Source: a virus. From it: DNA of 64,000 nucleotides. Location: the IMG/VR virus record IMGVR_UViG_3300024262_003767; one strand, given 5' to 3'. Position numbers and translations under genes: made by a program. Of this stretch, positions 2,322 through 63,768 are shown in pieces (within the stretch, counting starts at the first letter, position 1; every line of letters starts with the position of its first letter). Under the pieces are notes generated by a model. It made no database searches, was not told where the DNA came from, and was given only the letters and a program-made list of their open reading frames with translations.

Positions 2322-3175
2322 TAATTTCTTTCATACACTCGTATATAATCAACTACAAAATCAGCGGGCATTTCTGATGGTTCAGGTAAATATCCTAAAT
2401 CTCCTGCGGTGTTGACAATAACACTCATTTTATTATTAGGTACATTATAAATTTGTCTATATACTGGAACATTATCGATATACCATTCAACATAATTCCA
2501 TTCCCATCTACAAGCATATGTGTGAAAGTCTTTACTCCAATCAATTCTATTATTATAAGTTCTACCCAATTGTGTGCCAAAGTATCCAGTTTTTTCTTTT
2601 TTTCCAGGTGTACCAAAATGTGTGGTTAAACTAATACCTTTTGTATAATCTTTTCCAACATCACTTGTACTCATAAATTCAAAAATGTCAATCTCTGGGG
2701 GCCAGGTACTTCCATACAACCAGAACGCTGTCCACCATTTTAAACCTTGTGTTGGTGGTTTACATCGTATTTCAAAATATCCATATTGTTGATCAAATCC
2801 AATATCTTCCCATCTTGCAGTATTTAACCACCCTCTTTTGAGTTTATACTCACCCCCTGGGTTATCTTTAACATATAAATGTAAATAATTATCTTTTAAT
2901 TCTATACAGTCCAATGAAGATTCACCAGCAACCTGTTGTGGTGTGTGTTCTGTATGAGTAGAATACCATTTATTCCATTTTGTCCAATCCATTTCAGTAC
3001 CATTAAACTCATCATTAAATGTTAGTGTCCAACCTTCTTTGTCTATTGGATTGATTGGTGGGTTTGAGAACAGTTTTTTATTTGAAAAATAAAATTTACA
3101 GTAATAGTAACCATTTAAGAAAATAACATAAATGTTCCATAAAATCTCTTTAATAGCGTATAGTAAATAAGTCAT
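2318..3175 (-). CDS. Glycoside hydrolase family 16 (beta-glucanase/laminarinase-like, concanavalin fold)
   Basis: GH16 catalytic motif E-I-D-I-F-E (PPEIDIFEF); Trp/Tyr-rich beta-sandwich composition. Confidence 0.7.
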   Translation of the reverse strand: MTYLLYAIKEILWNIYVIFLNGYYYCKFYFSNKKLFSNPPINPIDKEGWTLTFNDEFNGTEMDWTKWNKWYSTHTEHTPQQVAGESSLDCIELKDNYLHLYVKDNPGGEYKLKRGWLNTARWEDIGFDQQYGYFEIRCKPPTQGLKWWTAFWLYGSTWPPEIDIFEFMSTSDVGKDYTKGISLTTHFGTPGKKEKTGYFGTQLGRTYNNRIDWSKDFHTYACRWEWNYVEWYIDNVPVYRQIYNVPNNKMSVIVNTAGDLGYLPEPSEMPADFVVDYIRVYERNY

Positions 3176-3461
3176 ATCTATTTTTATTTTTATATATAAA
3201 AATGTTATGGTAATGTTATATTCTAATTTAGATTTTGTAACTTTTTTATTCTAACATATTTTAATAAGTCTGAAAAGTCTAATTTTACAACATTCAACAT
3301 TTGTCTCATATTAAATCTATTATAACTAGGTGTGGATTCAACATCAACAAAATATGCTATCTCACAATCACAATTAATATCTATAATACCGATATTTTTA
3401 TTATCAATTTGATAAATTGATTTGACACTCAAATTGTATTTGTGTTCTAAATAATCATTTA

Positions 3462-27352: not shown

Positions 27353-28216
27353 TTAATTTAATTCACCTTCCCAAACAATTTTATATTCATATTTACCTGG
27401 TAGTAGTATAATTTCTCTTTGATTTGTATGGTAATATTGTGTTGGTAATTTCTGTACGTCAACTAGTACATCTTTAGGTTGTACTTCCATCATAATAACA
27501 AAAGGTGGTGATGATGGTTGTTCATCCACAAATCTTCTAGCCACTAATATATTTGTAGTCCAAGATGTCGACATATTGAAATCGGATATAACTTTTTCAC
27601 CAACTTTGTATGGTGGGGTTTTTTTTGAAAAATGTTTTATTTGAACTTCTTCAATACCTTTATAAATCTTTAAAGGTTTATCTGGTTTAAAAGGTTTTAA
27701 TTCGTCTATAATATCTTGTGTTAATTTTGATAATAACAAAGAGCCAGAACCTATATATGAATATAACCAATCATCAGTTTTTTCAGATAATTCAACATTT
27801 ATCCTTTCAGGTGTATGTTTATCATATTTAGTAAATCCTCCAATGTAACGAAAAGATATCACATCTCCATTTTTAATTCTTGCTAACCATTCACCTGTTA
27901 TTGAATGTTTATAAAAATAACCAGAATAATCATCAACATCAACTTCTTCATCTTCACTAAATCCAAAAAAATCTACAATTTGTTTATATAGAGGTTTTTT
28001 TGTTTTAATTTGATAGATATATTCACTATTTATATCAGATGCGTCTGCTCTATTTGTTAAATAGATTCTTTTTAAATGATTTAGATTACTAAAATCTATA
28101 TCTTCTAATTTTAATGGTTCATCAGAATATAAATATAAATTTCCATTATATGTTTTTTGATCGTAATCTACTTCATTATAATCTACAAGTTCAAATAATT
28201 TGAATTTAGTTATCAT
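27353..28216 (-). CDS. Hypothetical protein with a possible C-terminal ADP-ribosyltransferase-like domain
   Basis: FNMSTSWTT (STS) followed about 55 aa later by NQREIILLPG (Q-x-E); upstream IYKG in the position of the YRG Arg; overlaps the CCA-enzyme gene by 11 nt. Confidence 0.3.
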   Translation of the reverse strand: MITKFKLFELVDYNEVDYDQKTYNGNLYLYSDEPLKLEDIDFSNLNHLKRIYLTNRADASDINSEYIYQIKTKKPLYKQIVDFFGFSEDEEVDVDDYSGYFYKHSITGEWLARIKNGDVISFRYIGGFTKYDKHTPERINVELSEKTDDWLYSYIGSGSLLLSKLTQDIIDELKPFKPDKPLKIYKGIEEVQIKHFSKKTPPYKVGEKVISDFNMSTSWTTNILVARRFVDEQPSSPPFVIMMEVQPKDVLVDVQKLPTQYYHTNQREIILLPGKYEYKIVWEGELN

Positions 28217-29465
28217 TCATAAGATATTCATTTTTGAAACGCACAATCTCTCGTCTTTTCTTTTCTATTTCAATTTCAATTCCTTTGAAACCTTCAGCAG
28301 CTAAATCATTACCATTAACCACAAATCCATCATTACAATAATCAACAAATGGTTTATAGAATTCTTCACCCAAAAACTCATAAATTAAATCATCATCAAT
28401 ATGATATTGATTTTTCATTTTAGCCAAACCGTAAACATTTGAAACGTCAATGTTTTTAAATGATTTCCAATGTAAATCTAATTCCTTCTCAAGTTTGAGC
28501 AAAAATTCAATCTGGTTCACTAACTTGGAACTAAATTTCAATTCACTAATCATATATTTTCTCAATTTACGAATATCATTATCACGAAGTAAATGTGCAA
28601 ATAATATTGCGGAAATAGGTTTTGGTGTAAATCCATCGGGAGATATTTTCAATTTGGGAAACATTTGTTCCCACATATCATATTCAGTTAATAGTCTGAT
28701 ATAATTTTCTAATATTTTGTTTCCGCCTTTTTCTGCGTGTTCAATTACCTTATTCCATTCTTCATGTATTCTTTCTTGTGATACATCTTCTTTGGTACTT
28801 ATACCACGTAGTCTGTTATCACTTTTAATGGCTCTTGATGTCTCAGGTGATATGATACCACCTTTTCTACCTTGGGCTCTTGCAGCGAATCTAAATACTC
28901 TTAAAATTCTTAATCTATCTTCTTTAAATCTCTCAGCAGGATCACCAACAGCACGTATAACATTATTTTCAATATCTTTAACTCCACCAACCAAATCTAC
29001 AATTTCTTTTTTATTTATATCATAGAAAAGAGCATTGATAGTTAAATCTCTACGTTTAACATCATCTTCGATTGTAATATGGTTTCCAATTTCTACTTTA
29101 TCATCATCACCTTTTGTATCTCTACCTCCAGAAATATCTTTTCTAAAAGTTGCTAATTCGTGTCCGAGTGGTTCATCTTCAGTATAAATTCTAAGTACGC
29201 CAAAATTTTTACCTTGTTCATCAGAAACATTCCAACCTTTCAAAATTCTTTTACTTTCTTCTGGTAGAGCATTTGTGACTAAATCAAAATCATGTGGTAT
29301 CTTTTTTTGCAAAAAATCACGAACCGCTCCACCAACAACATAGATATCTTTACCAGCATTATTGAAGGCTCTTGATATTTCTTTAATGTCATAAGGAATA
29401 GGCATCTCAACAGAGATAGTATTTTCAGTTATAAATTCTAAATATTTTTTTAATTTTTCTACCAT
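28206..29465 (-). CDS. cca: tRNA nucleotidyltransferase (class II CCA-adding enzyme / polyA-polymerase head domain)
   Basis: VVGGAVRDFLQKKIPHDFDLV (GGxVRD...DxD) and RRDLTINALFYD motifs. Confidence 0.85.
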   Translation of the reverse strand: MVEKLKKYLEFITENTISVEMPIPYDIKEISRAFNNAGKDIYVVGGAVRDFLQKKIPHDFDLVTNALPEESKRILKGWNVSDEQGKNFGVLRIYTEDEPLGHELATFRKDISGGRDTKGDDDKVEIGNHITIEDDVKRRDLTINALFYDINKKEIVDLVGGVKDIENNVIRAVGDPAERFKEDRLRILRVFRFAARAQGRKGGIISPETSRAIKSDNRLRGISTKEDVSQERIHEEWNKVIEHAEKGGNKILENYIRLLTEYDMWEQMFPKLKISPDGFTPKPISAILFAHLLRDNDIRKLRKYMISELKFSSKLVNQIEFLLKLEKELDLHWKSFKNIDVSNVYGLAKMKNQYHIDDDLIYEFLGEEFYKPFVDYCNDGFVVNGNDLAAEGFKGIEIEIEKKRREIVRFKNEYLMNDN

Positions 29466-46955: not shown

Positions 46956-49472
46956 TTAGGCTTCTAAAAGTGGAGTTTCATCTTTTGGTGGTAATTCTTT
47001 ACTATTCAAATTAACAATAGTAATCTCACCATCTTTACTTCTAAGTGAAACTTTATCACCAATTTTAATTTCACCATTGAGAATAGCATCTGTTAGAGTA
47101 TCTTCAATGTGTCGTTGAATTGCTCTTTTCAATGGTCTTGCACCATATTCAGCATCCCATCCTTCTTCAAATAAGAAGTCTTTAAGTGACTTTGTGATAT
47201 TTACAACATAACCAATATCTTTAAGTCTATCGAGAGTTGTTTTAATTTCAAGGTCAATAATTCTGAAAATGTTGTCTTTTGAAAGAGCGTTGAACATTAT
47301 AAGTTCATCAACTCTATTAAGAAATTCTGGTGCAAATTTCTTTTTCAATTCTTTATCAATAACAGCGTTCTTCTTATCTTGAATGTTTTTGTTGGTGGCA
47401 TTTGTTTGAAATCCCATACCTGTACCAAAATCTTTAAGTTGTCTTGAACCTGTATTCGATGTCATTATGATAATTGCGTTTTTAAAATTAACTCTTCTAC
47501 CATAACTATCAGTAAGAATTCCATCATCAAGAACTTGTAGAAGTATATTAAATACGTCTGGATGCGCTTTTTCCATTTCATCAAGAAGAACAATTGAATA
47601 TGGTTTTCTTCTGATGGCTTCAGTTAATTCACCACCATCATCATAACCAACATATCCTGGAGGCGCTCCAATCAATTTTGAAACTGAATGTTTTTCCATA
47701 TATTCAGACATATCAATTCTAATGAGGTTTTCTTCTGAACCAAAGAGTTCTTTTGCTAGAACCTTTGCTAAGTAAGTTTTACCGACACCTGTAGCACCTA
47801 AGAACATAAATGTTCCGACAGGTTTTTTAGGATCTTTGATACCAATTCTACTACGTTTGATTGAACGAACAATTTTATCAACAGCATCATCTTGTCCAAT
47901 AACAATATTTTTCATTTTAGTTCCAAGATTTCTCAATTTGTTTGATTCATCATCATCAACAGCATCAAGTGGGATTTTGGTCATCATTGAAACAACTTCA
48001 GCAATATCTTCTTTTCCAACGATTTCACGATTTTCGTCCAATTTTTCGTTCCATTCCTCTTTCAATTTTTTCAATTGTTCTGTAAGGTTTCTTTCTTTAT
48101 CTCTCCAAGAAGCAGCTTTTTCAAATTTCTGTTCGTCAACACATTCAGTTTTCTTTTTCTCGGCTTCTGAAATTTTACTTTCAAGAATAGAAATAGCTTT
48201 AGGTTGATTTGAATTTGAATCTACATGAACTTTGGCACCAGCTTCATCCAAAGCGTCAATTGCTTTATCTGGCATAAATCTATCATTCATATATTTATCA
48301 GTCAATTTTACACAAGCTTCAATTGCTTCATCTGTGTACACGACTTTGTGATAATCCTCATATCTAACTTTGAGTTGTTTAAGGATTTCAATAGTTTCTT
48401 CAATGGTAGTAGGTTCTACCACAACTTTTTGAAATCTTCTTTCTAATGCACCATCTTTTTCAATATGTTTTCTATATTCTTCGAGAGTAGTTGCACCAAT
48501 ACATTGGAATGTTCCTCTTGCTAATGCTGGTTTTAACATATTAGATGCATCAAGTGAACCTTGTGCGCTACCAGCACCAATAATTGTATGAATTTCATCA
48601 ATAAAAAGTATAATGTTTGATGTTTCTTCAATTTCTTTGATAATTCCTCTTAAACGAGATTCAAATTCGCCACGATATTTTGTTCCTGCAACAAGGGCAC
48701 CCATATTAAGGGTGAAAATTCTTTTATCTTTAATGTTGTTTGGCACTTTACCATCAACAATTCGTTGTGCTAAACCTTCAACAATTGCAGATTTGCCAAC
48801 TCCAGGCTCACCTATAAGAATAGGATTATTTTTCTTTCTACGTGAAAGAATTTGACTTATTCTTTTAATCTCAATTTTTCTACCAACAACTGGATCGAGA
48901 GAACCTTCTTTTGCTTTTTTGGTAATATCTTCACCAAATTGTTCAATAAGTTTAGGTTTCTTATTTTTATTTGATGCTGTTGTATCACTATGATGCATTT
49001 CTGGATCATCCCAATCTGCACTATTACTTATTCCAGTAACTTTTTCGTGTAATTTTTTAATTATCTCACCTTCATCAATTTTTGAAAACATATCATTTAA
49101 AATATTATTTTTAGTATTTAAGAGTGAAAGTAATACTACATCAGTATCAACATATTTGACATCCATTTCATCAATTATTCCAACACAATTTTCAAGTATG
49201 TCCGTAACTTCTTGTGATAATTGTACTTTATCTTTTCTCTCTGCCAATTGAATATGCTCCATTTGGTTTCTCATTACCAAAGCATCTTGAATAGTTTTTT
49301 TGATTGTTGGAATACGAATATCAATTTCTTGAAGAACTTGATAAGCACGATAATTTTCATCCTCAATTAGAGCCAAAAACAAGTGTTCTGGTTCAATTTC
49401 AGATGATTTATATTGCAACGCAATCGTCTTACTATTCTTAATCACATTATCTACGTCTTTGTTAAAGTTCAT
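46956..49472 (-). CDS. clpC: ClpC-type AAA+ unfoldase (Clp_N, two AAA modules, UVR-like M-domain)
   Basis: Clp_N repeats ([16 protein letters not shown]); Walker [19 protein letters not shown] and GATGVGKT; UVR motif [11 protein letters not shown]; sensor-2 [10 protein letters not shown]. Confidence 0.9.
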
Positions 49473-55720: not shown

Positions 55721-56407
55721 TTATATTACGTTTATTTCATTAGCCATACAAACTTCACCATAATCTTTGATAAGTTTGTCCATATCATCAAATGAGATAT
55801 ATGCAAATCCTTTTTTACCCCATTCTCTACCCCAAGAATTTTTAATTCTTATTAGTTTCTTTTTAACATTAACACCATCTAATAAATATGCGTGTCCGCC
55901 CATTTTATTTCCTGTTGGAGTTATAATACCTTCACTATTTGGAAAAAACATATCATAGTACCACCAAGTACCAACAACAACAGGACCTAATGTTAATAAT
56001 GCGTTTACTGTTGTGTCAATATCCCAAGCCCAATTATATCCATTAATATACCCTGCAGATTGTAAAACTTTAGCACCAGCTCTAACACTAGTTCCATCAT
56101 AATCTTCACCAGGCCAACGATCTATCTTTTGTGCTTCATTATATAAATATTCTGTATCATAAGGTGCTACTCCACCTTTTCTACTTGCTTTTTGTGTTAT
56201 TGGACCAGAGGCTAACCAATGTATCCAACTAAATGCAACACAATGAGGTTTATAACCTTGATTTCCCCACCATCCATTTGTCCACCAATATTTATAATCT
56301 ATACCTGGTAATTTTTTAGGTAGCATTGAACTAATTAGGAATTGATGATCCCTATCATCAGGTTTTATAAATCTACCTAATCTTGATTTTAATTGATTTT
56401 CATTCAT
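55721..56407 (-). CDS. Papain-like cysteine peptidase (C1 family)
   Basis: QGYKPHCVAFSWIH (Cys region, cf. QGSCGSCWAFS), GGHAYLLDG (His), NSWGREWGKKGF (Asn/Trp). Confidence 0.75.
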   Translation of the reverse strand: MNENQLKSRLGRFIKPDDRDHQFLISSMLPKKLPGIDYKYWWTNGWWGNQGYKPHCVAFSWIHWLASGPITQKASRKGGVAPYDTEYLYNEAQKIDRWPGEDYDGTSVRAGAKVLQSAGYINGYNWAWDIDTTVNALLTLGPVVVGTWWYYDMFFPNSEGIITPTGNKMGGHAYLLDGVNVKKKLIRIKNSWGREWGKKGFAYISFDDMDKLIKDYGEVCMANEINVI

Positions 56408-56431
56408 AGAATGTGATTTTTATTCTATATA

Positions 56432-57583
56432 TTAAAATTCAGAATTATAAATGGATTTGTAAAATTTACCCCAATTAAAATACTTATCCATTGTTTGAAA
56501 TATATCATCAAGAGTTATCTTATGAATAAGGTGTTCCATACTCCAACATTCAGGTTCAATATATTTATTGACATTTGCGTGTCTTAATATGTCGTTCTTT
56601 TTTAGTTTAACTAAAAAATTATCTTTAATAATATCAAATCTATCTTGTGTCAAATAAATTTCTTTATTACTTAATACTTTACCTATTTCTTCTTGCAAAT
56701 GCTCTACATTCTTATTTGAAGTCTCAGTTAAGATTGTAACAACTGAAGATGTATTATTTAATTTTTGGTTAATACATTGAACATAATATGCTAATCCTGA
56801 TTTTTCTCTAATTTCTTGATATAGTGGAGAATTTAATCCAGAACCTAACATACTACAAGTATAACTAATTAATGGAAAATCTTCAGTTGCAACATTTGAA
56901 ATATTTATAATTGATTGTTTATTTTTATATTCGTTAATTAACTCTAACGGCACTAAACCTTCGGGTATAATGATATCATCATTAGTTCTAATTCCAAATG
57001 TTTCCGTTTCGATAAATTTGAATGGGGTATTTATAATACTATCTCTAAAATCAACATTAAAATCAAAATCATTGTTTTTAGATACATTAATTATCATTGT
57101 AGGTTTCTTATAGAAAAGATTTAAATATTCTTTACAATCATCTAAAGTGAAATTTTCTATATCACACCTTAATCCTATTGGGTGATAATAACCAAACATT
57201 TTTCTATTTAAATTTAGAAAATGGTTATTCATCTGTTCATTAAATGAATCTTTATATTCTTCCAAAACAATTTTTTTCTCATTTTCTAATTCTTCTTCTG
57301 TTGGATCATAAGATAGAATCAATTCTAGAAATTCATATTTATATTTATTAACATATTCATCCAATCCATTCATATAAAAAACTACTTCTGTATTAGATGT
57401 ATATGCGTTCCAAGCGACACCATATCTTTGAAAATCATCTTGTAAATGTTCAAATGACTTACAAATTAAATGCTCACAGATATGGGAGGCTCCAAATGTT
57501 CCAACTTTTTCTACCATTGTAGATCCATCAAATATTATATAAAATGAGGATAATTCTATTTCACTTTTAATGTTTTTTATCAT
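56432..57583 (-). CDS. M16 (pitrilysin) family metallopeptidase-like protein
   Basis: Inverted zincin HICEH (HxxEH) followed by GVAWNAYTSNTEVVFY (cf. NAFTSREHTVYY). Confidence 0.7.
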   Translation of the reverse strand: MIKNIKSEIELSSFYIIFDGSTMVEKVGTFGASHICEHLICKSFEHLQDDFQRYGVAWNAYTSNTEVVFYMNGLDEYVNKYKYEFLELILSYDPTEEELENEKKIVLEEYKDSFNEQMNNHFLNLNRKMFGYYHPIGLRCDIENFTLDDCKEYLNLFYKKPTMIINVSKNNDFDFNVDFRDSIINTPFKFIETETFGIRTNDDIIIPEGLVPLELINEYKNKQSIINISNVATEDFPLISYTCSMLGSGLNSPLYQEIREKSGLAYYVQCINQKLNNTSSVVTILTETSNKNVEHLQEEIGKVLSNKEIYLTQDRFDIIKDNFLVKLKKNDILRHANVNKYIEPECWSMEHLIHKITLDDIFQTMDKYFNWGKFYKSIYNSEF

Positions 57584-58111: not shown

Positions 58112-61100
58112 TTAAAAATCTGTTATCAAAGATGATATCAAATTATCATTTTTCTTAACAGTTATTAATCCATCATAATTTATTGGATGAACATGCTCAA
58201 TTATAATAATTTTATCAATTTTATTTTTTATTTCGTCTAATAGTTCAATAAATTCCATAACAGATTTTTCATATAATTTGCCCATAATCTCATCAAGAAT
58301 AATAAAATTAGGTCTTGATTTTACATTAATTTGTCTTAATGCAATTTTTAATGTTAATGCACAAAATGTTCTTTCTTTACCTGATGATTCGATTGCATTT
58401 TGTGAAACATCTAATCTATCATCCATACTTAATTTTAAAATTAAATCATCATTAAAGAATAATGTAAAATCAACATTAGTCAATAAGTCGTTCAATTCTT
58501 TATTTATTAGATGTATAGATTTTTTTAGAAGATAAGTAGGAATACCGTCTCTGGATATACATCTCTGGTACTCTTTCATTAGTTCTTCTTGCTTTTTTTG
58601 TTGAATAAATTTCTCAATTCGTGATTGAATATCTTCTATTGATTTTTCTAATAATGCTATTTCTTTTTTAATTTCAGATATTACTATATATTTTTCATCA
58701 ATATTACTTTTCAATTCTAAAATATACACATCTTTATCATCAATGTCTAATTGAGTTTGTTTATTTTCCTCAATTTGTGATTCATACATTTTAAAATTAT
58801 TAATAGTTTGTTCTATTTCTTTAATCTTCAAAAGATAATTATCAATATTTAATGTTAGTTTTTCTTTTAAATTGACTTTATCTTTTCTTAGTTCGTAATT
58901 TTCTTTAATTTTTTCTTCATGTTGAATATCATCTTCAATAGATTCAATATTTAATGATTTTAACTCGTTTTCAAGATTTTTAATTACCGATAAATTGTCA
59001 TTTTTATCTTTATCTAATTTTTTCAATAACATTTTACCTTTATCAAATTTATTTTTTAATTCTTCATTAATTGATAAATCATTATTTTTTAATCTTTCAA
59101 TTAACGATTCAATCATTAATATTTCATTCTCAAGATATTTAGTATCTTGAAGAACGTTTAATTCTGATAATATTTCTTCGTCATATTCACCACTTGTTAA
59201 TTTATCTCGTTTTAATCTGAGAGTCTGAATTTTTTCCTCTAATTCGGGTATAATAGGTGTTAAATCTTTATATTCCTCAATTAAATCCTTTATTTTAATA
59301 GTATTAATTTCTATATCATGTTCTAATGTTTTAATCTTTTCTTGAATGTGTTCTAAATGATCGGGTGTAGATTCGTCATAATCTCTACCACATGCAGGAC
59401 AAAAACTTGAATTTTTAAATTCTTCAATTTCTTGAAGTTTCTCATCATTTCGTGATTTTAAATTTGAACCATCTTTTTTCAGATTTCTAATTTTATTTTC
59501 GAGATTAATTTTTTCAAGTTCATTCTTCTTTATCTCATCTTTAATTGATATTATTTTTGAGTTTATTATACTCAATTTTTCACTTTCAACATTAGAAATT
59601 TCTTTTTCTTTAATGTTAATTTTGTCTTTTAAATTATTAATTTCTTTATCTCTAAACTCTCTAAGTTTTTGTTTTACTTTATCAACCTTCGTATCAATTT
59701 CATTATTATTTGTTTTAACTGATGATATTTCTTCTTTTATTTTTGAAATTTTATCATTAGTTAATTTTAATTTATCTTTTAAATTGTTAAGTTTATCTGG
59801 CTCAAATTTAGAAGGTAATTCATTTATATCTCTATCATAGATACTTATTTGTACTTTATTATCATCAATCTTTTGATTATAATTTGATAATGTATTATTT
59901 GAAATATTCAGATCAAAATTGATCATCGATTCATCAATTTTATTTAATTTTTTAATTAAATTATCTCTTAAAGAATTTTCACTATCCAATTCTAATTTAA
60001 AATCTATAATCAATTTCTTTTGTTCTTTTATCGTATTTTTCTTCTCTTCTATTACATTTACGATTTCAGAAATCTCTTGCTCTGATTGACTAACATCAAC
60101 TATAATTTTTTCAATGTTGAGATCTTTTTTATAATCTTTATATTCATTTTGTTTCTTTTCAAAAATATCATAACCAGCATCTCTAATGATGCTATCCATA
60201 AACACACTTCTATCAGCAGATAAAAGTTCATTCAAATTATCTGCATTAGTTAATGATATTCTAACAAAATCTTTAAAATCACCAAGAATAAGATCTAATT
60301 TCTTTTGAGTTTGAGTTTTTCTTTCACCAGTTTGTTTATTCTTTTCTTTTATTTCTTCAGTATCATAATAGTCCACATTGGTAGAACAAGATTTTATTTC
60401 TCCACTTCTATTTTCATCTCGTTCAGTTTTTCTCAAAATTGTAATTTTTTCACCATCAATATCTAAAACAGCGCCACCTGAACATTTATTTAATTTTCGT
60501 TTATTGTTAATATATCTATTATCACCGTGTTTTTCTCTTTTTACGGTAGTTGTGGTTGTACCATAAAGAATATATGTTATAACATCTAAAATAGTAGTTT
60601 TTCCTTGTTGGTTTTCACCATGAATTTGTATGATACCATTTAAATCTTTCCAATCAATTTTATTTTTATCACCAAAAACTCTAAAATTATCAAACCAAAA
60701 TTTTTCAATTTTCCACTCAATGTTAGTTTTTTGTTCTTTAATCTCTAATCTATCATTAATTAAATCATCAATTTTTAAAATTTCATCAATATCATTTTTT
60801 TTATATCCTTGTTCTTCAAGATATTCTTTAAATATTTTACGTTGAGTTTCAACATTTGTTAAATCTAATGTTTCAGATAACATTTTAGATGAAACCATAT
60901 CTGTATAAATGTATGTTTTATCAAATTTTACTTTGGTTGAATCATATTTATTTTTAATAAAGTTTCGTATTTTTCTTTCATTTTCAGTATTGATGTTGGA
61001 ACTTAAATCTTTCCAATGCACTTTAAATTCAGGAAAATTTCCAATTCTTTCATTTGTGTGTAATGTCAAATTATCATAATCTTCACCTTCATTGATATAT

Positions 61101-61279
61101 AAATTGATAAATGTATATTCATTAAGAATATCTATTTCTTCAACTCTAAAGTCAGTTTTACTTTTTATATCCCAAACCAAAAATCCATGTTTATCAACAT
61201 CTTCACCAAATGATTGTTGAACTGGACTACCAGGGTAACCAATAGTTGGTATTTTTTTCTTTATTTTTATTTTAGACAT
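58112..61279 (-). CDS. sbcC: Fusion ORF: C-terminal half of SbcD/Mre11 (about 190 aa, starting ..IGYPGSPVQQSFGED) joined in frame to SbcC/Rad50-type ATPase (Walker A, coiled coil, CxxC hook, signature/Walker B)
   Basis: IGYPGSPVQQSFGED matches SbcD VRYCGSPIPLSFDE just after motif V; Rad50 N-lobe IEKFWFDNFRVFG...GENQQGKTT; zinc hook SSFCPACG; C-terminal IIILDEIMGKL. Confidence 0.8.
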   Translation of the reverse strand: MSKIKIKKKIPTIGYPGSPVQQSFGEDVDKHGFLVWDIKSKTDFRVEEIDILNEYTFINLYINEGEDYDNLTLHTNERIGNFPEFKVHWKDLSSNINTENERKIRNFIKNKYDSTKVKFDKTYIYTDMVSSKMLSETLDLTNVETQRKIFKEYLEEQGYKKNDIDEILKIDDLINDRLEIKEQKTNIEWKIEKFWFDNFRVFGDKNKIDWKDLNGIIQIHGENQQGKTTILDVITYILYGTTTTTVKREKHGDNRYINNKRKLNKCSGGAVLDIDGEKITILRKTERDENRSGEIKSCSTNVDYYDTEEIKEKNKQTGERKTQTQKKLDLILGDFKDFVRISLTNADNLNELLSADRSVFMDSIIRDAGYDIFEKKQNEYKDYKKDLNIEKIIVDVSQSEQEISEIVNVIEEKKNTIKEQKKLIIDFKLELDSENSLRDNLIKKLNKIDESMINFDLNISNNTLSNYNQKIDDNKVQISIYDRDINELPSKFEPDKLNNLKDKLKLTNDKISKIKEEISSVKTNNNEIDTKVDKVKQKLREFRDKEINNLKDKINIKEKEISNVESEKLSIINSKIISIKDEIKKNELEKINLENKIRNLKKDGSNLKSRNDEKLQEIEEFKNSSFCPACGRDYDESTPDHLEHIQEKIKTLEHDIEINTIKIKDLIEEYKDLTPIIPELEEKIQTLRLKRDKLTSGEYDEEILSELNVLQDTKYLENEILMIESLIERLKNNDLSINEELKNKFDKGKMLLKKLDKDKNDNLSVIKNLENELKSLNIESIEDDIQHEEKIKENYELRKDKVNLKEKLTLNIDNYLLKIKEIEQTINNFKMYESQIEENKQTQLDIDDKDVYILELKSNIDEKYIVISEIKKEIALLEKSIEDIQSRIEKFIQQKKQEELMKEYQRCISRDGIPTYLLKKSIHLINKELNDLLTNVDFTLFFNDDLILKLSMDDRLDVSQNAIESSGKERTFCALTLKIALRQINVKSRPNFIILDEIMGKLYEKSVMEFIELLDEIKNKIDKIIIIEHVHPINYDGLITVKKNDNLISSLITDF

Positions 61280-62148
61280 TTATTTAATTTTATTTTAAAT
61301 TCACCATTTAGAATATTGGTTTCCCAGAACCTTAAAATATTAAAATTATTAGATTTTGAAAGTTCATCTTTAAAAATATCATTTTCAATATTTAACATCT
61401 GAGTCTTATTTAATTCATTTATATTAAATATGTTGGGGTTAGCATGCCAATAATCACCATCTGCCTCAATAATTATATTTTTATCTATTAACATAAAATC
61501 ATATATTTTATATCTTAATTTACCATCAAGTTTATAGTATATTCTAAATTGTGGTTTATATTTTATTGATTTTTCATCTAAAAAATCACCTATAATTTTT
61601 TCTATTTTAGTTTTACTTTTTTTAAATAACCCTTTATGTGCGATTTCCGTCATACTTAAACCATATCTTTCAATGCAAGTATTATTAATTTTTTTTCTAC
61701 ATTCATCGTCTTTCCAATTATGTGTTGTACCATATCGTTCTAAGAACGTATTTTTTCTTTTTATTTTTGATTCAGGTTTCCATCCAAATGGAAATTCATT
61801 ATTTTGATTATATTCTAATTTAGATTTCCTAACTTTATTTTTATAATTTTCATCACTCCACAATTTTTTAGTTATTTTTGAATGTAAATCTTTACTTTCT
61901 TGTGTTTTTACCTTACCAAACATTGGATTTTTTTCACCAACATATATAATTTTTTTATGCTCATCACAACATTTCCTTGAGCAATATTTTTTATCATCAG
62001 ATACTAATACTTCAATATCAACTCCACAATTTATACAATAAATAATTTTTCTTTCAACCTTAGATTTCTTATAATCTTTATATTGACATTTCCTTGAACA
62101 ATATTTCTTATTATTATGTTTCTCACCACAAACTATACATTTTTTCAT
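61267..62148 (-). CDS. Homing-endonuclease-like protein (Zn ribbons, NUMOD3, PD-(D/E)xK-like C-terminus) inserted within sbcD
   Basis: CIVCGEKHNNKKYCSRKC, CINCG...CSRKC; NUMOD3-like GEKNPMFGKVKTQESKDLHSKITKK; C-terminal YKIYDFMLIDKNIIIEADGDYWH. Confidence 0.55.
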   Translation of the reverse strand: MKKCIVCGEKHNNKKYCSRKCQYKDYKKSKVERKIIYCINCGVDIEVLVSDDKKYCSRKCCDEHKKIIYVGEKNPMFGKVKTQESKDLHSKITKKLWSDENYKNKVRKSKLEYNQNNEFPFGWKPESKIKRKNTFLERYGTTHNWKDDECRKKINNTCIERYGLSMTEIAHKGLFKKSKTKIEKIIGDFLDEKSIKYKPQFRIYYKLDGKLRYKIYDFMLIDKNIIIEADGDYWHANPNIFNINELNKTQMLNIENDIFKDELSKSNNFNILRFWETNILNGEFKIKLNKCLK

Positions 62149-62191
62149 AGATTTTTTGTTGTTTTATAGTATATATAAAAATATAATACTA

Positions 62192-62848
62192 CTATTCTGA
62201 TAATATCCAACCATTTTTTAAATATTCATCTAAGTCTTTATCATCTATCTCCATTTCTACTTCTTTATATTTGAAAAACTGCCTTTTATGTATATCACCA
62301 AGAAAAAGAAAATCATTCTTTTTAAAATCATTAATACTCTTGTACATACTATCAGTAAAAAATTTACCTCTATCGGTAGAACTATTTTGTATAGGGTCAT
62401 GAAACAAACCTATATAAATTTGTTCTTTTTTCTTTGTTTGTCCAACCCAAGGATCATTTAATTTGTCAGGGTGATCATATACAACCCAAGATATATTACC
62501 TTCATCATAAATACCTGTTGTGTCATAATATGTCACATTAGGATTATCAATCAATTTAACTACAACCTTTATACTATCAGTTCTATTTAAATTTTTCTTA
62601 CGCAAATCGTGATTACCTCTTGTTATAATAACTTTGGCTATATGTGAAAGTTTGTTTAAAAATTCACCACCGAGTATTTTTGCTTCATTGGAAATTTCAA
62701 TAAAATTTTCAAATAAATCACCAACAATTACAATTTTTTCTGGTTGTCTTATTTTTAATTCGTTATATATTTTTTCAAATACTTCTCTATACTCATCATG
62801 TCTCTCTACATTTCTAATGTGTACATCTGCTAAATGTGCTATCTTCAT
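62192..62848 (-). CDS. sbcD: SbcD/Mre11 nuclease N-terminal fragment (phosphoesterase motifs I-V)
   Basis: LADVHI, VGDLFE, RGNHD, LFHDPI, FLGDIHKRQ (cf. E. coli ALGHIHRAQ); ends about 25 aa after motif V. Confidence 0.8.
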   Translation of the reverse strand: MKIAHLADVHIRNVERHDEYREVFEKIYNELKIRQPEKIVIVGDLFENFIEISNEAKILGGEFLNKLSHIAKVIITRGNHDLRKKNLNRTDSIKVVVKLIDNPNVTYYDTTGIYDEGNISWVVYDHPDKLNDPWVGQTKKKEQIYIGLFHDPIQNSSTDRGKFFTDSMYKSINDFKKNDFLFLGDIHKRQFFKYKEVEMEIDDKDLDEYLKNGWILSE

Positions 62849-62967: not shown

Positions 62968-63768
62968 ATGAAAAATATTACAAGTAGAGAAAAATTTCTA
63001 AAAAAAGTATATGAATATAGTCAAGGAATCCAAGATTATATAGGTTTAGTAGATTATACTATGTTAGGTTTAGATGCCACGGAAGGAGATATACTAGGTT
63101 TGTGTAAAAGAGCAAAAGAATATGGAGTCGCAACTGTTTGCGTTAGACCTAATATGGTATCTTTAGCAAAAAGAGAACTCGATGGTTCAGATGTTGGAGT
63201 TACAACAGTTATATCGTTCCCTGAAGGTACAAATTCTAAAGAAGCAAAATTATTTGAATGTAAGAAAGCGATTTCTGATGGTGCTGATGATATTGATATG
63301 GTTTTAAATTATCAAAAACTTAAAGAAGTATGGAATAAAATTGGTTCCGCTGATGAAGATGAACGTGAAGAGGAAATGTTTGATGTTATCTATTATGAAT
63401 TGGTTGATGAAGTTAAAGCATTAGTGGATATGTGTCATAATGCTAGTAAAATTTTAAAAGTTATTGTTGAATCTGGTAAATTAAATTCTGAACAAACAAA
63501 ATTTGTTACAGAGATATGTATAGAAGCAGGAGCAGATTTTATTAAAACATCAACTGGTATGGTAGATATTGGTGCGGAATTAGATAAAATTAAAATTTTC
63601 TATGATACAATTAAAGAAAAAGGTTCAGATATGTTAATTAAAGCATCAGGTGGAATTAGAACAATTGAAGATATTAAAAAATTCGCACCATACACAGATA
63701 GATTTGGTGTTGGTTCGGGTTCTATTGATAATATGATGGGTGTTAGTTCGGGTAGTTCATCATACTAA
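62968..63768 (+). CDS. deoC: Deoxyribose-phosphate aldolase
   Basis: ATVCVRPNMV, TTVISFPEGTN, GADDIDMVLNY, catalytic Lys in FIKTSTGM. Confidence 0.85.
   Translation: MKNITSREKFLKKVYEYSQGIQDYIGLVDYTMLGLDATEGDILGLCKRAKEYGVATVCVRPNMVSLAKRELDGSDVGVTTVISFPEGTNSKEAKLFECKKAISDGADDIDMVLNYQKLKEVWNKIGSADEDEREEEMFDVIYYELVDEVKALVDMCHNASKILKVIVESGKLNSEQTKFVTEICIEAGADFIKTSTGMVDIGAELDKIKIFYDTIKEKGSDMLIKASGGIRTIEDIKKFAPYTDRFGVGSGSIDNMMGVSSGSSSY

Follow-up and report, generated by a model that had tools for sequence, protein, structure and literature searches.

A phage single-chain Mre11-Rad50 gene probably split by a mobile Vsr-like homing endonuclease cassette carrying a charged tail and head

Positions 58,112 to 62,848 of the window, a 64,000-nucleotide (nt) stretch of DNA from the IMG/VR virus record IMGVR_UViG_3300024262_003767, hold a gene for the nuclease Mre11 (SbcD) and for Rad50 (SbcC) in interrupted form. 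Very probably, a phage gene encoding Mre11 and Rad50 as a single chain was invaded by a mobile cassette with a homing endonuclease gene (HEG) four codons past phosphoesterase motif V, and now yields two polypeptides. Three open reading frames (ORFs) make up the locus, all on the minus strand: 62192..62848 (218 amino acids, aa; the N-piece), 61267..62148 (293 aa; the HEG) and 58112..61279 (1055 aa; the C-piece). The stop of the N-piece lies 43 nt from the start of the HEG, which is in a different frame from the N-piece, and the HEG and C-piece ORFs overlap by 13 nt (61267-61279). The ORFs, gap and overlap are as described in an earlier note on this DNA, whose observation is confirmed and whose interpretation is supported, with three corrections. 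An assembly artefact is rejected because the same trio of genes is found on contigs of two other samples.

The cassette comprises, in order, a ~24-codon acidic tail with a stop codon, a short leader, a Vsr-like HEG, a new start codon overlapping the HEG stop, and a ~10-codon basic head. The host gene would in this way have become two polypeptides: a 218-aa catalytic core, and a 1055-aa chain with the remaining nuclease strands, the capping domain, the helical region and Rad50. By analogy with characterised homing endonucleases, the HEG would cut empty alleles at the conserved motif-V coding sequence, and through recombinational repair the cut allele would then acquire the entire cassette along with its tail and head. 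The interruption would fall at the tip of a beta-hairpin that follows motif V, the oppositely charged tail and head lengthening its two strands.

The N-piece carries the Mre11/SbcD phosphoesterase core, followed by the cassette-borne tail and stop. It matches Pfam Metallophos (6.5e-14), positions 8-231 of the 1376 in phrog_35725, and the SbcD-like phrog_100. As the earlier note had read it, all five phosphoesterase motifs are present: I (62813-62830; D8/H10), II (62711-62725; G43-D44), III (62606-62617; G78-N79-H80-D81), IV (62393-62407; H150) and V (62279-62299; G184-D-I-H187). Of an enzyme of this class, Mn-dependent nuclease activity in complex with Rad50 would be expected. The host-derived part would be residues 1-194 (62267..62848), ending ...GDIHKRQFFKY, a boundary placed by analogy with the allele pairs L004/L005 and L013/L001 described below. 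The ORF stops 28 aa after Q190 of GDIHKRQ, not 'about 25 aa' past this motif as had been estimated. About 20 of roughly 100 N-piece homologues end at most 45 aa past motif V.

Q190 itself is invariant across a 71-sequence alignment. It is replaced in five of 15 cassette-bearing alleles (L017, L020, L022, L025 and L030; KRS, IMG, IRS, KRD and KRG). These replacements may be target-site immunity changes, traces of co-conversion, or the result of relaxed constraint beside the insertion.

The C-piece begins with MSKIKIKKKIPTIGYPGSPVQQSFGE. Its residues 12-190 (60710..61246) are assigned by profile, AlphaFold2/Foldseek and tblastn to the remainder of Mre11, namely the last strands of the nuclease fold (YPGSPVQQSFGE, 61202-61237), the capping domain and the helical C-terminal region. 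Residues 191-1055 (58112..60709) are the Rad50/SbcC part (Pfam AAA_23, 1.1e-9; SbcC-like phrog_77, 1.3e-34). This part contains the Walker A motif GENQQGKTT (residues 221-229; 60593-60619), the zinc hook CPACG (627-631; 59387-59401), a divergent signature-like motif SSGKERT (965-971; 58367-58387), the Walker B motif FIILDE (992-997; 58289-58306) and the H-loop IIIEHV (1025-1030; 58190-58207). The claim that some 190 aa of Mre11 run without a stop into a complete Rad50 is borne out by these motifs and by the AAA_23 and SbcC-like matches.

Both pieces are needed for a whole Mre11. A family profile aligns with Staphylococcus aureus SbcD (7dog_A; E 8.4e-17) without interruption over the split point. 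For AlphaFold2, the N-piece was joined directly to C-piece residues 1-185 as an artificial single chain, and the model has a mean predicted local distance difference test score (pLDDT) of 90.8 and a predicted template modelling score (pTM) of 0.80. The best PDB matches of this model in Foldseek (3qg5, 3tho, 7dog and 6s6v) are all full-length Mre11/SbcD chains, with target-normalised TM-scores of 0.56-0.68. The complete nuclease fold with the capping domain and the helical C-terminal region is obtained only when the pieces are joined. Together, the unbroken profile alignment and the joined model identify the N-terminal extension of the long ORF as the missing part of Mre11. The extension is thus related to SbcD and starts with the segment that normally follows motif V, and sbcD is split right after that motif, as the earlier note had proposed. 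Its expectation that the two SbcD pieces abut holds for the profile alignment; as simple abutment it fails, since ~24 and ~11 extra residues lie at the junction.

The middle ORF is a free-standing HEG of the Vsr-like/EDxHD type, which agrees with its earlier description as a NUMOD3/Zn-ribbon/PD-(D/E)xK-type homing endonuclease gene, the fold being Vsr-like. It encodes two Cys4 Zn-ribbon-like motifs (62086-62139 and 61966-62037), a NUMOD3-like motif (61912-61938) and the catalytic sequence E228-x-D230-G-D232-Y-W-H235 (61444-61467). In Pfam it matches DUF7487 (32 bits, cutoff 27), NUMOD3 (20.4, at the cutoff) and, below the cutoff of 20.6, DUF559 (18.6); its PHROG matches, phrog_559 and phrog_3339, are homing/HNH endonuclease families. 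The family has at least 155 homologues of ~300 aa, several of them named very-short-patch-repair endonuclease by the Joint Genome Institute (JGI), and homologues bear Vsr/DUF559 Pfam domains. Residues E228, D230, D232, H235 and D257 are invariant among 28 homologues. Searched against the PDB, the HEG profile finds the catalytic domain of I-Bth0305I (3r3p_A) as its best match, a weak one (E 0.034).

The 43-nt spacer (62149..62191) is the 5' leader of the HEG, with the motifs TATATATAC and AAAACAACAAAAAA. Spacer comparison and RNAfold reveal a common hairpin in related HEG leaders (e.g., L013 3933-4000 and L004 1964-2027), its arms TTTTGTTGTT and ACAACAAAA flanking an AT-rich TATA(A/T)AT-like element. 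The leader in the window is shorter, with the 3' arm of the hairpin but not the 5' arm. Hairpins with late-promoter elements are described in leaders of such HEGs by Dassa et al. (2009; PMC2677866).

The gene that was invaded encoded a single chain already. In the 735-kb genome of an uncultured phage (LR756501), found by tblastn of phage genomes, an uninterrupted ORF of 1202 aa matches the N-piece at 46% identity and the first part of the C-piece at 41%, and the two matched stretches adjoin each other. Microcystis phage Mel-JY01 carries an uninterrupted fused gene as one annotated coding sequence, and phrog_35725 matches both N-piece and C-piece. An exhaustive phmmer search with a relative returned proteins of at least 950 aa for 81 of the 150 best cluster representatives, and the uninterrupted fused proteins of the phage family are about 1040-1200 aa long. 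Judged from these homologues, an uninterrupted Mre11-Rad50 fusion is the norm in this phage family and was not created by the split, which cut an existing single-chain gene. Comparison with related genomes thus returned the unsplit sbcD-sbcC locus that the earlier note had proposed to look for, and its view of the fusion as unusual does not hold. Single-chain Mre11-Rad50 is instead the common form of the enzyme among a large set of contigs that resemble those of large phages. No description of a natural single-chain Mre11-Rad50 or SbcCD fusion in phages was found in the searchable literature, which gave only papers on tagged proteins without bearing on the question.

In a second lineage, the Mre11-like protein is separate and ~270 aa long. 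At loci of this short type (L005 6001-11510; L008 5001-8804), the ~270-aa Mre11-like gene is followed by several small ORFs and then by an ORF of 745-789 aa for which no Pfam match is on record. This ORF may be the Rad50 partner, and the small ORFs may be counterparts of the capping and helical region.

That the cassette is mobile is seen in two near-isogenic allele pairs with and without the insert. L004 carries it and L005, from the same study, is empty; the two are 100% identical over 1893 nt, and the identity ends exactly four codons past ...GDIHKRQ. In the second pair, L013 and L001 (89% identical), both flanks are visible, and L013 has 1070 nt in place of 32 nt. The same cassette architecture occurs at 14 or more further loci, in hosts down to ~30% identity with the N-piece of the window. 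When viral contigs were scanned with an alignment of HEG homologues, ten more non-redundant cassettes of this layout came to light at the same site; the N-piece as single query found no relatives among the viral contigs. Genomic context was looked up for three HEG homologues (44-48% identity), and each adjoins a Metallophos gene: two of them split it in the same way, and the third lies behind an intact copy. Given this context and the empty and occupied alleles, the HEG presumably cleaves empty alleles beside the insertion point. The locus thus has what defines a gene in pieces around a free-standing HEG: an HEG with its own start and stop, pieces that can be started separately, and both occupied and empty alleles.

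The site is shared by HEGs of at least two unrelated families. In L010 (6001-10332), a LAGLIDADG-type HEG (292 aa; LAGLIDADG_3, 7.3e-10) occupies the post-motif-V position, the N-piece ending GDLHEFQYLTK* and the C-piece starting MNNKKILGAYPSS, and the acidic/basic module is absent. A Vsr-like HEG occupies the site in L028 (1694-5795), again without tail and head. In L012 (6001-7433), the gene is split with no HEG in between: …GDIHKKQLFYRS* is followed after 68 nt by MKKNENKLLGGFAGS…. The termini of the pieces in L028, with its Vsr-like HEG, are near-identical to those in L012, which suggests that in L012 the HEG has been lost and the gene has stayed in pieces.

Two further loci carry variants of the arrangement. 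In L014 (3177-5109), an HEG of the same family follows an intact short-type Mre11 of 261 aa, and the next ORF (59 aa) duplicates the last 58 residues of the Mre11 gene; the N-piece there appears to have been 'healed' through a duplicated 3' segment. Additional cargo ORFs (1069-2402) are found in L021 (339-5817), between a tail-bearing N-piece (339-1061) and the HEG (2456-3355), and two of them resemble parts of a DNA methyltransferase by eye.

The layout could also come from a self-splicing group I (or group II) intron with the HEG inside it, where splicing would restore a continuous Mre11-Rad50 mRNA, though this is now very unlikely. HEGs of the Vsr-like/EDxHD type are reported in group I introns of recA (PMC2677866; PMC3239194), a conserved site beside a catalytic motif is typical of intron insertion, and the N and C ORFs of the window share a frame. 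Across the 15 cassettes, however, the two frames agree in five, as chance predicts, and differ in 10; each C-piece also has a separate start codon, which overlaps the stop of the HEG. Rfam gave no match at gathering score, whether for the window or for five related loci, and at E<=10 the region 60900-62600 gave no intron and only two chance-level matches to microRNA and small nucleolar RNA models. Outside exon-like sequence, an intron would have only ~118 nt upstream and ~20 nt downstream of the HEG ORF, and outside ORFs only the 43-nt spacer and ~20 nt would be left for a catalytic core. The flanking tail and head, moreover, are under protein-level constraint, and L012 is still split with its 68-nt gap. 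The preference of the earlier note for a free-standing HEG over an intron therefore stands. Translational bypass or read-through was rejected as well, with a gap of ~1 kb and frames that differ in 10 of 15 cassettes.

A second alternative, improbable on the evidence, is that the insertion killed the gene, that the ORFs are decaying remnants and that the phage uses host or other nucleases. The residues right after motif V are altered in some alleles, with Q190 replaced in the five named above, and related loci are riddled with further selfish elements. Against decay, the ORFs are long and intact, and all catalytic and ATPase motifs are kept in DNA of 22.6% G+C content (GC), in which an ORF of 1055 codons would arise by chance with a probability of ~1e-44. 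Many diverged lineages show the split state with their pieces intact, the tail is under purifying selection, and in L012 the ORFs remain intact and split after HEG loss. A split of this kind also has a functional precedent, NrdA of phage Aeh1, whose gene is interrupted by an HEG (cited in PMC2677866).

The cassette reaches beyond the HEG itself. The tail (62195..62266) consists of 24 codons, KEVEMEIDDKDLDEYLKNGWILSE, with a net charge of -6, and is followed by the stop codon (62192-62194). The head (61247..61279) is a start codon with ~10 further codons, MSKIKIKKKIP, with a net charge of +5, and its first 13 nt coincide with the 3' end of the HEG. Empty-site alleles have neither the ~24 residues of the tail nor the ~11 of the head, both of which are parts of the mobile cassette. 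Over at least 14 cassettes, the tail follows the consensus x-E-[ILV]-E-[ILV]-[DNY]-E-x-[DE]-L-[DE]-x-Y-[LIE]-K-x-G-W, and 15 heads follow M-[GSAE]-K-(K)-I-K-I-K-K-K-[IV]-P. Pairwise differences between tails are 0.33, 0.205 and 0.49 at the three codon positions, and the synonymous value exceeds the nonsynonymous one (pS 0.53, pN 0.31), so the tail is constrained at the protein level; conservation at the DNA or RNA level was rejected on this pattern. Charge is conserved too, with a mean of -4.4 in tails (negative in 17 of 18) and +4.7 in heads (positive in all 15).

These features raise the alternative that tail and head are halves of a split intein, and that protein trans-splicing ligates the two pieces. 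An N ORF, a Vsr-like HEG and an overlapping C ORF are also the layout of intein-containing fractured genes, an acidic N part and a basic C part have been noted for split inteins, and genuine split inteins interrupt the Rad50 P-loop in two other members of this gene family, L012 and L015. Even so, this explanation is extremely improbable. The tail (KEVEMEID...ILSE) and head total only ~35 aa, compared with ~130 aa or more for a Hint fold; the tail begins with K/E rather than Cys/Ser, the TxxH block and the terminal HN are absent, and the expected extein +1 position after the head holds no Cys, Ser or Thr. Searched with Pfam, the two pieces gave neither a Hint nor an intein domain. Furthermore, in the protein P0058, treated below, the module persists as a permanent in-frame insertion, and Dassa et al. 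classed their own SbcD locus as intein-free (PMC2677866).

The P-loop interruptions of L012 (6687-9910) and L015 (4872-8877) look like an atypically split intein, of which there is none in the window. The upstream ORF ends ...GK followed by CV(D/E)xxT(K/E)IDIEF... (~29 aa), and the downstream ORF begins with ~126 aa ending ...GIVSHN|S(T). The halves are separated by a 422-aa ORF lacking a Pfam match in L015 and by nothing in L012, and the Pfam Intein_splicing match is weak (E 1.8e-4, below the cutoff). In L047 (1501-3968), a distant relative of the HEG lies between ORFs resembling intein halves, the downstream one containing ...AVHN|S; the arrangement would amount to a fractured gene of the classical intein type.

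In the joined AlphaFold2 model, tail and head form a strand (189-200), a helix (203-211), a short strand (215-218) and a second long strand (223-234), with pLDDT of 79-86. The equivalent segment of canonical SbcD is short (...HHPFSIEDD--KIKYSGS..., in the profile alignment to 7dog_A). Reading it as a hairpin, the module would lengthen this hairpin and the HEG would sit at its tip. The two pieces are proposed to be translated separately and to reassemble non-covalently, with the help of a charge-complementary intermolecular ribbon in which the two long strands, one from each polypeptide, would pair.

The module is also found without the HEG. P0058 (L008 4944-5861) is uninterrupted and HEG-less, with tail and head in frame (...GWVVDD-DKNSA-KINIKKVIP...), and its AlphaFold2 model has the same strand-helix-strand topology (mean pLDDT 93.3). 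The module is absent from its closest relatives (75-82% identity), and its junction still has the 'KN' codons found in cassettes just ahead of the C-piece start codon. On these two grounds, the module of P0058 is read as a probable scar left by deletion of the HEG. In the database, the gene of P0058 has been called 17 aa too short; the protein really starts MPIKKVIHLADIHIRTYR and so includes motif I.

Segment length between motif V and the GS motif was compared in 134 cluster representatives with both flanking motifs. It is 12-16 aa in most, 19-23 aa in a subgroup and 27-29 aa in two, and 12 of the 134, all uninterrupted, have 39-56 aa with a tail/head-like pattern. These older insertions could be either scars or the ancestral source of the module. 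The occurrence of the same module in frame in uninterrupted proteins weakens the idea that the cassette invented tail and head.

Two tentative readings of the module can be set out. In the first, somewhat less likely than not, tail and head are a portable complementation module that travels with the HEG. The element could then break an important nuclease at a hairpin tip, its two fragments zipping together again by a charge-complementary beta-ribbon. The module stays behind as an in-frame insertion of ~36 aa when the HEG is deleted; this would cover the P0058 scar and possibly the 39-56 aa insertions in ~9% of family representatives. The second, which concerns only the reassembly part of our account and is itself somewhat doubtful, takes tail and head for halves of a native, variable loop insertion of Mre11, which the HEG entered and whose halves hitch-hike by co-conversion. 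The 12 long uninterrupted segments of the same pattern at the site fit a native loop, as do the intermediate lengths (19-29 aa) and the persistence of splits without the module (L010, L028 and L012). On the other hand, the module is far better conserved in cassettes, in hosts down to ~30% identity, than in HEG-less proteins, and the opposite charges of its halves are near-universal. The absence of the module from the 75-82% relatives of P0058 and the 'KN' codons kept at its junction suggest that the module came with the cassette rather than earlier.

Several points weigh against the invasion and reassembly account as a whole. Group I introns that are degenerate or disrupted by ORFs can escape Rfam covariance models, and the likeness of the HEG to the solved EDxHD domain is weak, as given above. 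The reassembly role of tail and head draws on a model in which the pieces were artificially fused into one chain. Some splits at this site lack the acidic/basic extensions, with a LAGLIDADG HEG (L010), with a Vsr-like HEG (L028) and with no HEG (L012), so the module is not strictly needed for a split gene to persist. Finally, its presence in uninterrupted proteins leaves room for a function unrelated to splitting.

The window as a whole has ~26% GC, and no tRNA genes were found in it. Its PHROG matches include families of phage ATP-dependent protease, tRNA nucleotidyltransferase and virion structural protein, and it looks like a piece of a large phage genome. Neighbouring genes of the locus (at 55721-57583, 62968-63768, 46956-49472 and 28206-29465) are of the types papain-like C1 peptidase (8.9e-8), M16 insulinase-like peptidase and divergently transcribed DeoC-family aldolase (1.4e-15), with, in addition, a phage ATP-dependent protease family match (phrog_4871, 2.6e-260) and a tRNA nucleotidyltransferase.

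As a natural example, the locus shows with good resolution how a selfish endonuclease can break an important multi-domain enzyme and leave two intact, apparently conserved frames. Related loci supply stages of the process: empty, occupied, occupied with cargo, split without HEG, and re-fused as a 'scar'. What merits follow-up is the conserved, oppositely charged module and its in-frame persistence after HEG loss. If the portable-module reading is true, homing endonuclease cassettes are a source of new protein insertions. If tail and head mediate reassembly, they would be a natural and very short split-protein complementation tag, of interest to protein engineers, and the origin of some lineage-specific loop insertions would be accounted for.

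The closest known system is the one described by Dassa et al. (2009, Nucleic Acids Research 37:2560; PMC2677866), who defined the Vsr-like HEG family in 'fractured genes'. Their material includes one Global Ocean Sampling (GOS) locus from Lake Gatun, where SbcD-like N and C ORFs surround a Vsr-like ORF and no intein is present. Extra residues, 25 at the C-terminus of the upstream ORF and nine at the N-terminus of the downstream one, are absent from other SbcD-like proteins, and their account of the locus proposes no role for them; the 3' end of the HEG overlaps the downstream ORF. By this description the two loci are alike, the window having 24 and ~11 extra residues and an overlap of 13 nt. 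The split-SbcD arrangement of the earlier note is therefore real, but of a kind already published for one metagenomic locus in 2009; the window is a further case of it, well documented and unsurprising to a specialist. In contrast to the single short metagenomic locus from Lake Gatun, the window holds the whole host gene, a fused Mre11-Rad50, and its relatives provide empty, occupied and HEG-less alleles with a tail and head that are conserved and oppositely charged. New here are the conservation of tail and head at the protein level, their predicted strand-helix-strand structure and their presence in frame in HEG-less relatives.

The fractured genes with split inteins in the same study share the HEG family, the ORF layout and the polarity of acidic N and basic C parts with the window. 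They have intein motifs, however, whereas the window has none, and no covalent ligation is therefore expected. Among HEGs, the prototype of the EDxHD family is I-Bth0305I (Taylor et al., 2011; PMC3239194; PDB 3R3P), which likewise combines a C-terminal Vsr-like catalytic domain bearing E/D/H/D with an N-terminal DNA-binding region. I-Bth0305I lies in a group I intron of phage recA, while the HEG of the window is free-standing, with two Zn-ribbon-like motifs and one resembling NUMOD3.

Free-standing HEGs also split essential DNA-metabolism genes in other phages. The nrdA gene of Aeh1 is interrupted by an HNH-type HEG, and gp43, the DNA polymerase of Aeromonas phage 25, by a GIY-YIG HEG; as in the window, the HEG overlaps the downstream piece (PMC2677866). 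The separately translated pieces of Aeh1 NrdA reassemble into an active enzyme (cited in PMC2677866). These cases involve other HEG families and other host genes, and terminal extensions are not mentioned in that account of them.

With canonical Mre11-Rad50, including E. coli SbcCD and the Thermotoga maritima and archaeal complexes, the locus shares the phosphoesterase motifs, the predicted nuclease, capping and helical architecture, and the Walker A and B, signature-like and CxxC hook motifs of Rad50. The canonical enzyme consists of two subunits, whereas this phage family has joined them in one polypeptide, which in the window has been re-divided at a non-canonical point inside the nuclease domain.

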